DNA of 32,029 bases from Candidatus Woesearchaeota archaeon (GCA_003650545.1 QMQO01000014.1:1-32029), one strand, 5' to 3'; counted from the stretch's first letter, positions 11,638-22,440 are shown. Notes: generated from the letters alone by a model not told the origin. Made by a program: numbers and translations.

Positions 11638-12350
11638 AGTAATCCTCTGATTAGTTTCTTGACATCATATAAATCTTTTGCATAATAATCTGCATATTTC
11701 AGTGCGCTGTGATTCTGAAATCTTTTTGTTTCTATTAAAATAGACGTAATTCCTAATTGTTTTGCTGCAAGATCTTCTACAGGATCGTCACCGATCATGA
11801 TACATTCTTCTGACTTAATTTTACCTAAGAACAAACTTTTTCTCATAAACTTTTTAAATGGTATCAATGTAGATTTTTTCCTAGACCTATCAGCGAAATA
11901 TAACTTATGAAAATATTTTTTGATTTTAAGTTTTTTCAATTCTCTAACAATTCTCAATCTAAAACCATTCGTTATTAAAATAATCTTCACATTTTTCTTT
12001 TTTAAAAACCTCAGTAAGGGTAGAGCCCCCTTTCTTAATCTTAAATTATCCAGAGCATAATTTCTAAAAAGTTTTGTTAATTTGATCTTCTTTCTTAAAC
12101 TTGTTTTTATACCTGCGTGTTGAAAAAATAAATCTGTCCAGTCTAGAAATCTTAAGATGCGTCTTTTCTTAATCTTATTAATCTCCTTTGTTGTTTTTAA
12201 AAGAGCTGTTTTAAACCTCGCAAAAGTAATGTTAACACCATGTTTGTTCAAGATTTTTGTGAAGTTTCTACTTGTCTTAAATCTCTCTATCAATCTTGTG
12301 GTGTCTGCTAAAGTATCATCCCAATCAAATATAACATATTTTATTGCCAT
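11634..12350 (-). CDS. HAD-superfamily hydrolase
   Basis: Motif I FDWDDTL, motif II LITNG, motif IV MIGDDPVEDL; ATGA overlap with rnj. Confidence 0.9.
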   Translation of the reverse strand: MAIKYVIFDWDDTLADTTRLIERFKTSRNFTKILNKHGVNITFARFKTALLKTTKEINKIKKRRILRFLDWTDLFFQHAGIKTSLRKKIKLTKLFRNYALDNLRLRKGALPLLRFLKKKNVKIILITNGFRLRIVRELKKLKIKKYFHKLYFADRSRKKSTLIPFKKFMRKSLFLGKIKSEECIMIGDDPVEDLAAKQLGITSILIETKRFQNHSALKYADYYAKDLYDVKKLIRGLL

Positions 12351-12354
12351 TTTG

Positions 12355-12363
12355 AAAAAAAAA
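12355..12363 (-). terminator. Oligo-T tract after tRNA-Leu
   Basis: T9 run on the minus strand 6 nt after the tRNA discriminator base. Confidence 0.5.
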
Positions 12364-12415
12364 GACGGATGCGGGGAGGAGGATTCGAACCCCCGTAGGC
12401 ACTAAGCCAACAGAT

Positions 12416-12466
12416 GGCTCACAGGAGCACTTCATTGCTAAGTTGCTTAGCTCATCACTCAATTAA
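12416..12466 (-). other. tRNA intron 3 (51 nt, canonical 37/38)
   Basis: BHB with central helix CTCA/TGAG and bulges AG|T and CC|A. Confidence 0.88.
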
Positions 12467-12473
12467 CTTGAGT

Positions 12474-12504
12474 TAGGACGTTTTAGCGCCATATGCCAAA
12501 AACA
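12474..12504 (-). other. tRNA intron 2 (31 nt, position 30/31)
   Basis: Central helix GGAC/GTCC, bulges AG|T and TA|A, intron stem GTTTT/AAAAC. Confidence 0.85.
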
Positions 12505-12520
12505 CTGTCCCGTTTGGCCA

Positions 12521-12564
12521 CTCCGGACACATAGCGTGTAGGAGTGCACGAACGCCAGTGAGTT
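12521..12564 (-). other. tRNA intron 1 (44 nt, position 15/16, D-loop)
   Basis: Central helix CCGG/CCGG, bulges AG|A and AG|T, intron stem including TGGCGT/ACGCTA; exon-side helix is absent (relaxed BHB/BHL). Confidence 0.8.
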
Positions 12565-12608
12565 CTCCGGCATCCCCGCAGTTGCGTAATAAGAGAAGTA
12601 AGTATCCA

Positions 12609-12617
12609 TTTATAAAA
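12609..12617 (-). promoter_or_regulatory. TATA box of tRNA-Leu gene
   Basis: TTTTATAAA about 30 nt upstream of tRNA G1. Confidence 0.65.
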
Positions 12618-12643
12618 TTACCTAAAAACAAAAACAAATGAAA

Positions 12644-13099
12644 TCAGACAAGTTTTCCTAACTTGCTTTCTATTTCACCCAATTCAGACTCTAGTTTGTC
12701 CAACTGTGTTGCAATCTTTGGTTTTGCAACAACAATTTTCTTTTCCTTTTTCTTTGAACTAATCTTTTTACCTTTCTTTCCCTTAATCTTTTTCTTAACA
12801 TTTTCTCCTGTCATCCTTGCAGCCTTCTTCTCAATCTTTTCTTCAAATTCTGGTGTCTTAAATCTTAACGAAGTTTTAGGTAAAGAAGCTTTCAACTTTG
12901 CTATATCCCGAGAGATGCTAGATATAAGTTGTTTAAGTCTGTCAACTTCTTCTTGTCTTTCCTTTCTTACAGTTTTAAATTTTTCATAACGCTGTAATAA
13001 TTGTACGACATCTTTTGATGATTCTAGAATAGAACGCCTGATCTCTACAGGATCTTTTATTCCAACATAGACAACATCTTTATCTTTTTCAGCCACCAT
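12644..13099 (-). CDS. Hypothetical coiled-coil protein with Lys-rich region (start reassigned to ATG 13099)
   Basis: AGGTGA-N5-ATG; VYVGI strand followed by a long heptad helix, Lys-rich linker and C-terminal helix LDKLESELGEIESKL. Confidence 0.8.
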   Translation of the reverse strand: MVAEKDKDVVYVGIKDPVEIRRSILESSKDVVQLLQRYEKFKTVRKERQEEVDRLKQLISSISRDIAKLKASLPKTSLRFKTPEFEEKIEKKAARMTGENVKKKIKGKKGKKISSKKKEKKIVVAKPKIATQLDKLESELGEIESKLGKLV

Positions 13100-20778: not shown

Positions 20779-21792
20779 ATGAAGTTTTTAGCTATAACCG
20801 TCAGCGGATTTGAAGATATCTGCCAAAAAGAATTGAAAGAATTTGGAGCTAAAAAAACAAACATCAAAACTGGTTGCGTCATATTCGAGTTAAATAAAAG
20901 CAAAATCGTCAGCTTGATTGATTTGGGACAATCCTTCTCAAAAATAATAGAAATATGGCACACCGACAAATTCACTTCACTCTCCAGCTTTAGAACTATC
21001 AAGAACATCAGAATAAATATTAAACCAACCAAAACATTTCTTGTTCGGTGCCAAAAAATAGAGAGTAAATACTCATCACATGAAATTGAAGCATGTGTTG
21101 GTGAAAACATCATCAAAAATCTGACAAAAACTGGATTTAAGCCTAAAGTTTCTACTCTAAATCCAGATATCCATGTGTTCACATATGTTACAAAGTCTGA
21201 ATTTTTTCTTGGTCAAGACCTTACAATTAGGGACCTAAGTAAAAGAAAATATCGTGTGTTTGTTCATCCCGCATCATTCAGAGGTCACATTGCCTATTGC
21301 CTTCTACGCTTTTCAGGCTTCAAACCAGGGAAAAGGTTGTTAGATCCAAACTGCCGTGATGGTATAATCCCAATAGAAGCCGCACTTTTCAGTAAAGGAA
21401 AAAGCAAAAAAAGCACTATCGAAGCAACCGATCCATTCATCAAAAACATTCTTATCGCCAAAAAAAATGCTAAAATAGCCAACGTTAAAATTAATTTTAG
21501 CAAGCAAGACTTCGATTGGTTAGAGACTCACTACGAAAGTAATTATTTTGATTTTATTGTAACCGCTCTTCCCAGCCCTACAAAATATAATCAAAAACGC
21601 ATAAAAGAATCATATAAAACCTTGTTTGAATCGGTGTCTGAGATACTAAAACAAAATGGGAAGGTTGCCATACTAGTTAGAAAGCCAGAGCTGCTTAAAC
21701 AGCAAACAAAAAATCGTTTTAAATTGATTGAAGAACGCAACATCTATGTTGGTAAAGAAAGATTCGTAGCACTATTAGCCAAAAAAATTTAG
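20779..21792 (+). CDS. THUMP-domain RNA methyltransferase-like protein (Trm14/TrmN-related), motifs divergent
   Basis: N-terminal GFEDI...E, THUMP region, LSKRKYRVFVHPAS, LLDPNCRDGIIPIEAA. Confidence 0.82.
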   Translation: MKFLAITVSGFEDICQKELKEFGAKKTNIKTGCVIFELNKSKIVSLIDLGQSFSKIIEIWHTDKFTSLSSFRTIKNIRINIKPTKTFLVRCQKIESKYSSHEIEACVGENIIKNLTKTGFKPKVSTLNPDIHVFTYVTKSEFFLGQDLTIRDLSKRKYRVFVHPASFRGHIAYCLLRFSGFKPGKRLLDPNCRDGIIPIEAALFSKGKSKKSTIEATDPFIKNILIAKKNAKIANVKINFSKQDFDWLETHYESNYFDFIVTALPSPTKYNQKRIKESYKTLFESVSEILKQNGKVAILVRKPELLKQQTKNRFKLIEERNIYVGKERFVALLAKKI

Positions 21793-22140: not shown

Positions 22141-22440
22141 GAGTGTAGAAAAGCGCTTGATATCCGCAATTTTGTGAGGAAAGTCCGTCCACCATAAAAA
22201 GGCCACTTCCGTAAGGGAGGCCTATAAGCGGCGGCAACCGCTCAGAAACGAAACCGTCTTGGTTAAGGGTGATACGAGCGAATGCTTCTGAGAAGAAGCA
22301 GAGCTAACCCGTTGACGTTTCCAAGACAAGGATGAAACGGCGAGTCCTGGTCGGTGCAACTTAAGAAAGGCTTAGTAGAATATCAAACAGACCGTCCCCA
22401 TAGGGGTCTGACAAAAGACGGCTTATGCTTTTCTACACTT
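22141..22440 (+). ncRNA. rnpB: RNase P RNA (archaeal, compact)
   Basis: P1 AGTGTAGAAAAGC/GCTTTTCTACACT; CR-I GAGGAAAGTCC; CAGAAAC; TGAAAC; GGTGCAA; CR-V ACAAAAGACGGCTTAT pairing to form P4; P2 TTGATAT/ATATCAA. Confidence 0.93.

Follow-up and report, generated by a model that had tools for sequence, protein, structure and literature searches.

A putative cis-acting half-mer box C/D guide within the third intron of a Woesearchaeota tRNA-Leu(CAA) gene

The tRNA-Leu(CAA) locus

The tRNA-Leu(CAA) gene considered here lies in a stretch of 32,029 nucleotides (nt) from a Candidatus Woesearchaeota archaeon (GCA_003650545.1 QMQO01000014.1:1-32029; the window), which is one contig (C14) of a 1.64-Mb archaeal metagenome-assembled genome (G000; DPANN, 36% G+C, 85% complete). 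The gene occupies 12579-12370 on the minus strand, between two minus-strand open reading frames, and is interrupted by three introns, the third of which carries the subject of this report, a segment complementary to the anticodon loop joined to a kink-turn (K-turn) module. All features of the gene given below are on the minus strand. The exons lie at 12579-12565, 12520-12505, 12473-12467 and 12415-12370, the third being a micro-exon of 7 nt (ACUCAAG, positions 31-37) that separates exons 2 and 4. When 12564-12521, 12504-12474 and 12466-12416 are removed in silico, the joined exons make up a class II tRNA of 84 nt, which ARAGORN calls tRNA-Leu(caa).

At the chosen register, and only there, introns 1-3 each show 4/4 central pairs and 3-nt bulges, the form expected of archaeal bulge-helix-bulge (BHB) introns. 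Intron 1 (12521-12564, 44 nt) lies in the D-loop region and has the central helix CCGG/CCGG, with 4/4 pairs at this register only of the eight tried; it is not present in the seven orthologs read. Intron 2 (12474-12504, 31 nt) lies between positions 30 and 31, with the central helix GGAC/GUCC and bulges AGU and UAA, and an intron at this position is retained by orthologs from other families. Intron 3 (12416-12466, 51 nt) is at the canonical position 37/38 and has the helix CUCA/UGAG (4/4 pairs). According to a register test, the 3' half of its BHB covers 12415-12421, where UGAG (12421-12418) pairs with C32-A35 and is followed by a bulge made of CC and, across the splice site, A38 (12417-12415). 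This helix is 92% paired over 85 distinct sequences from related genomes. The gene model behind the 'intron 3' named in a first-pass annotation of the window, made from the sequence alone, is thus upheld by both the spliced product and the BHB registers.

The unspliced gene is seen neither by ARAGORN, with or without its intron option, nor by Rfam, and a search of 12340-12620 gave no relevant Rfam match to a tRNA or C/D small RNA (sRNA) family at gathering score or at E<=10. The whole genome yields 11 matches to the Rfam tRNA model, 7 of them above the cut-off; most of its tRNA genes evidently have several introns and are for that reason invisible to standard finders. A TATA-like UUUUAUAAA (12609-12617), about 33 nt upstream of tRNA position 1, is a probable promoter element, and a run of nine T (12355-12363) right after the tRNA 3' end is a likely terminator; both were read directly.

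Anatomy of the intron 3 module

The target strand is A31-A36 of the anticodon loop (ACUCAA, 12468-12473), with the wobble nucleotide C34 at 12470. It pairs with UUGAGU (12462-12457), among the first nucleotides of the intron, to give the hairpin ACUCAA-GUUAA-UUGAGU (12473-12457). Counted from its 3' end as guide positions N2-N7, this complement places N5 at G12460; with the unpaired N1 (G12456) the guide segment covers 12456-12462. Immediately 3' of it stands a box D'-like AUGA (12452-12455), in which G2n is 12453 and A1n is 12452. The hairpin GCUAAG-CAA-CUUAGC (12437-12451) follows, the canonical stem (C-stem) of the K-turn, in which G12451-G12446 pair with C12442-C12437 around a loop at 12445-12443, as covariation confirms. 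The segment 12429-12436, delimited by family comparison, holds the 3-nt bulge AAU (12436-12434) and a box C'-like AUGAAGU (12435-12429), with G1b at 12433 and A2b at 12432. The tandem non-canonical pairs at the K-turn are G12433.A12452 and A12432.G12453, and the adjoining 3b.3n pair is a Watson-Crick A-U. The guide nucleotides GAGU(G) (12460-12456) have an alternative partner in GUGCUC (12425-12430), assigned by register enrichment, which forms the non-canonical (NC) stem of the splice-competent fold only. The K-turn and hairpin strings quoted in the first-pass annotation are all present where it had placed them, and the ViennaRNA minimum-energy fold contains both the ACUCAA/UUGAGU hairpin and the C-stem.

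Within this single sequence the motif is at chance level. A generic K-turn-like pattern (GA, a 5-6-bp hairpin, NNN, GA and at least 5/7 further pairs) was counted 62 times in the 1.64-Mb genome and, in each of five shuffled versions, 44-61 times, so that the evidence for its reality comes from relatives.

Conservation and covariation in related genomes

A BLAST search with the precursor against 40 relatives of the same order, one per family, yielded seven genes with 70-80% identity across introns 2 and 3. A covariance model (R1) was built from the micro-exon and intron 3 of eight orthologs, with the C-stem and the splicing helix as its only structure. At E<=0.01 it has 88 matches in 78 of the 151 genomes of the order (Woesearchaeota-like DPANN), spread over more than 70 GTDB families. 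This count is a lower bound, since the model missed the element of one genome (G021) and that in the tRNA-Met gene of the window's own genome. In other genomes, for example G017, G036 and G006, tRNA-Leu(CAA) has no module. Outside the order, the model finds the element in tRNA-Leu(CAA) of six genomes of the class, from two families. The aligned set holds 86 matches, the two matches of one of the 78 genomes (G132) having been left out. When the intron defined by the model is removed from these 86, ARAGORN identifies 40 as tRNA-Leu(caa) and nine as tRNA-Met(cat); 14 others give odd calls and 23 none, and those that were looked at are genes with further introns.

Among the 85 distinct sequences the C-stem is paired in 94% of cells and all six of its pairs show changes on both sides. 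Its covariation score is reached by none of 500 shuffles, and sliding the partner strand by 1-3 columns lowers pairing from 93% to 25-52%. NAUGA follows the stem on its 3' side in 80 of 81 distinct sequences. The element is regarded as real because it is conserved and covarying in relatives, and the K-turn-type element that the first-pass annotation had placed in the canonical tRNA-Leu(CAA) intron is to that extent substantiated. A chance resemblance to a K-turn, for which the genome-wide frequency of the generic pattern could be cited, can be ruled out in view of the shuffles, the covariation and the register slide.

The K-turn proper was compared in 73 cleanly parsed rows, where GA on both strands is given by construction and the parse also required AU at bulge positions 2-3. 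The bulge is GAU in 51 rows, AAU in 17 and UAU in five, and the D'-like box is AUGA in 38, CUGA and UUGA in 11 each, CAGA in five, AAGA and GUGA in three each, and others in two. The pair 4n.4b covaries like the C1-G6 pair of boxes D and C (C-G 16, A-U 14, U-A 10 and G-U 3 of 73), and the closing pair -1n/-1b is G-C in 74 of the 80 cells with letters. Some members have a loop instead of the stem, for example L097 with CUGA-UCA-AUGAUGC, which is the archaeal D'/C' kink-loop (K-loop) form. The family thus carries the sequence signature of a K-turn or K-loop (C helix or loop, 3-nt bulge, tandem G.A/A.G and conservation), and its order (5'-D', stem or loop, C'-3') agrees with the internal K-loop in archaeal C/D sRNAs. 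RNAalifold, run separately on the eight orthologs, picks the guide:target hairpin together with the C-stem.

Two further features were noted. One locus (L214, G272:C75:748-788) has the K-turn module CUUGAGU-G-AUGA with no anticodon loop directly upstream and a 3' BHB half about 90 nt downstream, and may represent a longer or rearranged intron. Upstream of tRNA-Leu genes of relatives, six loci (L002, L003, L025, L010, L013 and L030) have a partial copy of the tRNA 5' end (e.g., GCGGGGAUGCCGG) followed by a hairpin, 40-70 nt before the real 5' end; it may be a duplicate in decay, part of an extended leader or a signal for processing.

Guide register and anticodon match

A fixed order of parts is found in 82 of the 86 matches (81 distinct sequences): target 31-36, loop, 6-nt complement, one variable nucleotide, NNGA, hairpin and R/U-A-U-G-A. 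The loop between target and complement has 3-8 nt and holds the 5' splice site; the hairpin has 3-8 bp, and a few members are loop-only. The complement pairs at 6/6 positions in 65 and at 5/6 in 15 of the 81 distinct sequences, and position 34 pairs with the fifth nucleotide upstream of NNGA (N5) in 80 of them. N1 is variable (G 56, A 10, U 6 and C 1 among the 73 rows). This is the geometry of box C/D guides, in which the guide lies 5' of box D or D', the target is at the fifth position and position 1 is unpaired; positions 2-11 are described as pairing (PMC9670817).

The complement follows the anticodon when the tRNA changes. Two matches in tRNA-Leu(UAA) have the guide UUAAGU opposite ACUUAA. 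Among 11 matches in tRNA-Met(CAU), three have AUGAGU opposite ACUCAU and the other eight pair with 31-35 only. In tRNA-Trp, UGGAGC stands opposite GCUCCA in all seven introns read, six of them orthologous introns found by BLAST in 61 genomes, with the order UGGAGC-R-AUGA-hairpin-RAUGA. As the covariance model was built from Leu(CAA) only, such anticodon-switched guides are penalised by it, not favoured.

The window's own genome holds two more members. A multi-intron tRNA-Trp(CCA) gene on contig C8 (about 20788-21055, plus strand; L220) has UGGAGC-G-AGGA-hairpin-UGU-GA opposite GCUCCA. The canonical intron of a tRNA-Met(CAU) gene with at least three introns (C36:8562-8729, minus strand; L221) has, with its anticodon loop, ACUCAUA-UUAU-UUGAGU-G-AUGA-GCC-CUAU-GGC-UAU-GA; this module was not reported by the model at E<=0.01. 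A targeted scan of the genome found only Leu(CAA), Met(CAU) on C36 and Trp(CCA) on C8, and the canonical introns of tRNA-Leu(UAG), a tRNA with the anticodon GUG and one further tRNA of the same genome are without the module. A loose whole-genome regular expression (hairpin, NUGA and NAUGA) gave 139 mostly spurious matches and was dropped.

Several neighbouring structures were recorded in these introns. The tRNA-Trp genes (L220 and orthologs L224-L229 and L232) have a second conserved part, UGGUCUG-hairpin-GGAAGAG, that pairs with the last two intron nucleotides and positions 38-41; it shows one compensatory change in L229, would have C39 opposite a fifth nucleotide and is followed by no K-turn. 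A second K-turn (UUGA ... AAUGA) considered in the tRNA-Trp intron of the window's genome was rejected, the orthologs showing a plain 6-7-bp hairpin, UUGAAGC/GCUUCAA. The canonical introns of two tRNA-Leu(UAG) genes (L009 in G030 and L016 in G038) have GUGAUGA-GC..GC-UAUGA or GUGAUGA-GCUG..CAGC-UGUGA; their upstream guide is complementary to the anticodon stem on its 3' strand, with C39 opposite the fifth nucleotide, and pairing of position 41 is preserved by a change from G.U to A-U. The tRNA-Leu(UAG) gene of the window's genome (C1: about 54120-54280) is without such an element. An anticodon loop CUGUAGA (anticodon GUA) at C10:10150-10320 (minus strand) is followed by a long intron with GUGAUGA, in which no matching D-like box or complement was seen.

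The distribution of matched guides bears on the idea that the module is a now neutral relic of a mobile box C/D sRNA that entered tRNA introns, its complementarity being left over from anticodon-intron pairing for splicing. Mobility of C/D sRNA genes and a link to tRNA introns have been proposed for Nanoarchaeum (PMC3491384), the boxes are degenerate, and the complement is lost in four of the 86 members. Retention in more than 70 families with compensatory stem changes, and guides matched to four anticodons, argue against neutrality; moreover, it is the 3' UGAG that provides the splicing helix, so that the BHB has no need of the 5' complement. A relic therefore appears very improbable.

A proposed guide for methylation of the wobble nucleotide

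The reading preferred here, with a probability of roughly 60%, is that intron 3 represents a naturally occurring half-mer (single-K-turn) guide of the box C/D type, which would act in cis and direct 2'-O-methylation of the wobble nucleotide C34 before splicing. In the primary transcript, UUGAGU near the 5' end of the intron would pair with A31-A36 of the anticodon loop. The box D'-like AUGA, one unpaired nucleotide further on, and the box C'-like AAUGAAG would come together across the 6-bp hairpin to form the K-turn. L7Ae would bind this K-turn, Nop5-fibrillarin would dock, and fibrillarin would methylate the 2'-OH of the wobble cytidine to give Cm34. C34 is proposed as the methylated nucleotide because, counting upstream from the D'-like box, it pairs with guide nucleotide five. 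GAGU would then swap to GCUC and CUCA to the 3' UGAG, after which the splicing endonuclease could cut.

The exchange of partners has been examined with nearest-neighbour energies, intron 2 being removed in silico and non-canonical pairs and any protein being left out of the calculation. Fold A (guide:target hairpin, C-stem and GCUC:GAGC) has -15.7 kcal/mol and fold B (anticodon stem, BHB helix, C-stem and GAGU:GCUC) has -11.8 kcal/mol. Both use the same four strands with partners exchanged. The GAGU:RCUC pairing of fold B is moderately enriched at its true register (340 pairs vs 233-286 at five other offsets) and is supported by one-sided changes (G-U to A-U, C-G to U-G), most clearly in the window's own subfamily. 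Since the guide:target hairpin excludes the BHB fold, it has to open before cleavage.

The first-pass annotation had seen much of this, and the comparison of the two folds bears out its claim that the GAGU bases have two mutually exclusive partners. It had further described the hairpin as a competitor that hides the anticodon exon and L7Ae as a factor that could shift the RNA to the splice-competent state. The first description holds in so far as the hairpin excludes the CUCA/UGAG helix and is the more stable structure in naked RNA. It falls short in treating the hairpin merely as a competitor: the 3' arm ends one nucleotide upstream of NUGA, pairs N5 with C34 and, in Leu(UAA), Met(CAU) and Trp(CCA), changes with the anticodon. 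The role assigned to L7Ae finds no support, as the K-turn core is common to both folds and gives no evidence that L7Ae alone selects one.

A related explanation keeps L7Ae and dispenses with methylation: L7Ae would act as a chaperone or switch between the hairpin and the BHB fold, and so time or permit splicing. The two exclusive folds, the greater stability of the naked hairpin and the enrichment of GAGU:RCUC at its true register are all compatible with it. So are a 99% complete genome (G128) that keeps the module with neither fibrillarin nor Nop5 found, and the four of 86 members with a K-turn and no anticodon complement. In addition, a Watson-Crick 3b.3n pair is reported to prevent K-turn folding in metal ions alone (PMC4382518), so that folding in the window would depend on protein. 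There is, however, no evident reason why L7Ae should prefer one of two folds that both contain the K-turn core. The explanation also does not account for the invariant one-nucleotide spacing between complement and NUGA, for the pairing of N5 with position 34 in 80 of 81 sequences, for the 4b.4n covariation or for the restriction of the module to tRNAs in which a 2'-O-methylated nucleotide 34 (Nm34) is guided elsewhere. It is considered unlikely.

For the methylation guide, by analogy with archaeal pre-tRNA-Trp, in which guide:target pairing and the splicing fold are reportedly mutually exclusive as well, the ribonucleoprotein (RNP) may hold the guide:target fold until methylation is complete, with splicing afterwards.

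Relation to known guide RNAs and kink-turns

Box C/D sRNAs of Pyrococcus are described as aiming at position 34 of Leu(CAA), Leu(UAA), Met and Trp, only the Trp one being intronic (PMC7994747), and in P. furiosus C34 of tRNA-Leu(CAA) is listed as a predicted target (PMC7668247). The window's family has the same four tRNAs and the same predicted Nm34. The Pyrococcus sRNAs are free-standing and bipartite, whereas the guide in the window sits in the intron of its own target.

A close natural precedent in placement is the pre-tRNA-Trp intron (Haloferax volcanii; sR50 in Pyrococcus), a guide in the canonical 37/38 intron that reaches C34 by the fifth-nucleotide rule with L7Ae, Nop5 and fibrillarin (PMC7994747, PMC4090602, PMC11408192). 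That intron, a complete C-D'-C'-D RNA, has two K-turn motifs, and its two guides (for C34 and U39) are about 10-12 nt long; the 51-nt intron in the window belongs to tRNA-Leu(CAA) and has one D'-hairpin-C' motif, no terminal C/D and a 6-nt guide. According to reviews of 2014 and 2024, tRNA-Trp alone has a guide inside its intron (PMC4090602, PMC11408192). A full-text literature search, beyond which further papers are possible, turned up no account of the family or of an element of this kind in tRNA-Leu introns, in line with the first-pass annotation, which knew of none for tRNA-Leu.

A second relative may be the 66-nt intron within elongator tRNA-Met of Nanoarchaeum equitans (Randau, 2012), which gives a stable, abundant RNA with one box D, one box C-like element and a GC hairpin (PMC3491384). 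That paper names no target, the words 'anticodon' and 'position 34' being absent from its main text. A one-contig genome of the same class (G160) carries a 139-nt tRNA-Met gene with a 66-nt intron, found through the Rfam tRNA model; the covariance model gives only noise on it (E of 3 or worse). In this intron the parts follow in the order GCUCAUAG, loop, CUAUGAGC, U, CUGA, CCC-GAAA-GGG and GAU-GA, the guide CUAUGAGC being complementary to the target GCUCAUAG and N5 standing opposite C34. By eye, the G160 intron matches the published description and has the same order of parts as the window. The published Nanoarchaeum RNA looks like a member of the same family because the G160 intron shares this order and the position of N5 opposite C34. 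It differs from the window in the tRNA (Met), an 8-9-bp guide, a consensus CUGA and an extra GC hairpin of 6 bp. If it is a member, as it looks to be, it would supply the family's only expression evidence.

The stability of that RNA leads to another explanation, in which the excised intron, linear or circular, is a functional small RNP acting in trans on other tRNA copies or RNAs. The Nanoarchaeum intron RNA with the same module is reported as stable and abundant (PMC3491384), a precedent for the stable excised RNP suggested in the first-pass annotation, and the Haloferax tRNA-Trp intron guide is reported to act in trans (PMC7994747, PMC11408192). In the window, however, only 6 nt are complementary and the intron nucleotides on either side add no pairs with positions 37-40, so that binding in trans would be weak, and the G160 duplex includes the first intron nucleotide, which only the precursor contains. 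Action of the excised intron thus seems improbable, more so than a switch worked by L7Ae.

In architecture the module resembles engineered half-mers (Ye laboratory; Hardin and Batey), which have one C/D motif closed by a stem-loop and a guide 5' of box D, and are active with L7Ae, Nop5 and fibrillarin (PMC9670817, PMC1635284). Those RNAs are man-made, trans-acting and equipped with 12-nt guides. In vitro, half-mers in holo-RNPs with L7Ae are described as no less active and specific than bipartite guides (PMC9670817), whereas an earlier study describes them as active but unspecific (PMC1635284).

With standard K-turn/L7Ae complexes (Kt-7, box C/D) the family shares the C helix, the 3-nt bulge and the G.A and A.G pairs, with L1 mostly G and L3 U. 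L7Ae is reported to read G1b and G2n and not to need the C helix (PMC3884654), for which reason the K-loop members fit too. The window differs in having A-U in place of U.U at 3b.3n, and its K-turn is predicted from the sequence. The construction and placement of the module would allow it to work like a C/D guide.

Protein machinery and weighing of the interpretation

The window's genome encodes the three proteins that the proposal needs, fibrillarin (234 bits), Nop5 (182 bits) and L7Ae (104 bits). Fibrillarin (C9:36995-37633) and Nop5 (C16:27001-29156) are on different contigs, and some 1.4 kb from Nop5 there is a weak match to fibrillarin (23 bits). A strict scan of the genome for canonical C/D sRNAs gave one match vs none in five shuffles, and a relaxed scan 26 vs 8-9; only the strict locus also has internal D'/C' boxes. 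It lies on the minus strand of C25 (9511-9563 in reverse-complement coordinates) and consists of a terminal stem GGCCGGC/GCCGGCC, AUGAUGA, 11 nt, CUGA, 7 nt, AUGAUGA, 13 nt and CUGA. In the window itself, a full-length archaeal RNase P RNA is found at 22145-22436 on the plus strand (124 bits).

Fibrillarin is above the cut-off in 140 of the 151 genomes of the order. Nop5 was found in none of the 10 genomes tested among the 11 without fibrillarin over the cut-off. One of these, G017 (98% complete, neither fibrillarin nor Nop5 found), has a tRNA-Leu(CAA) intron of 14 nt without K-turn, which supports a methylation guide. The genomes in which neither fibrillarin above the cut-off nor Nop5 was found are G017, G144, G040, G107, G110, G121, G122, G062, G111 and G128, six of them at least 93% complete; RNA-guided methylation may have been lost in some Woesearchaeota-like lineages.

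Several observations weigh against a methylation guide. Co-occurrence with the enzyme is not decisive: the module is present in 75 of the 140 genomes with fibrillarin and in three of the 11 without (G062, 85% complete; G111, 56%; G128, 99%), a difference in the expected direction among incomplete assemblies, and G128 keeps an intact guide and K-turn although neither fibrillarin nor Nop5 was found in it. The duplex is short, with 6 bp in the window and, for the majority of Met introns, 5, and its loop has 3-8 nt, where canonical guides are described as using about 10 bp (PMC9670817); compared with a usual length of about 8-10 bp, G160 has 8-9 bp and Met introns have 5-6 bp. The boxes are degenerate, AUGA being commoner than CUGA and the C'-like box of the window agreeing with RUGAUGA at 5/7 positions. 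A canonical C/D sRNA has terminal boxes C (RUGAUGA) and D (CUGA) together with internal C' and D', while the window has one D'/C'-like pair only, and no second UGAUGA/CUGA pair occurs in the intron or its flanks. Because the second motif is absent and the guide short, the module is not a canonical C/D sRNA, and a single-site RNP has been described as active and unspecific in the site methylated (PMC1635284). Four of the 86 matches keep the K-turn with no anticodon complement. Most guide:target columns are invariant within Leu(CAA), so that covariation of the duplex rests on a few anticodon switches; the sequences were gathered with a model, and related genomes do not count as independent. Finally, one metatranscriptome (X1, which contains 0.06 of the sampled words) gave no reads on 12200-12800.

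Biological significance

The reading can be extended, more tentatively and with the odds somewhat below even, to a DPANN class of natural half-mer box C/D RNPs in the canonical introns of Leu(CAA), Leu(UAA), Met, Trp and some Leu(UAG) tRNAs. These would act in cis and produce Nm34; guides complementary to the 3' side of the anticodon stem would give Nm39 instead. Splicing would be held back until methylation by an exchange among four strands (target:guide and GCUC:GAGC vs target:3'UGAG and guide:GCUC). On the practical side, the module helps to locate and correctly splice tRNA genes that standard finders overlook.

To our knowledge, a guide made of one K-turn and six guide nucleotides has so far been known only as a laboratory construct. 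If the proposal is true, intron 3 would be a minimal natural form of RNA-guided methylation, and confirmation would mean that methylation in vivo can do without the bipartite architecture. Methylation of the wobble 2'-OH in Leu(CAA), Leu(UAA), Met and Trp tRNAs would then be conserved among archaea, which would achieve it in different ways, and the introns would offer a ready test system for the coupling of modification and splicing.

Why tRNA introns persist is an old question, and for archaea the textbook explanation draws on a single example, the box C/D RNA of the tRNA-Trp intron. The present data suggest that a large uncultured archaeal order applies the logic of that intron to at least four tRNAs, and, if the proposal is true, methylation of the wobble nucleotide would be a reason why these introns are kept.

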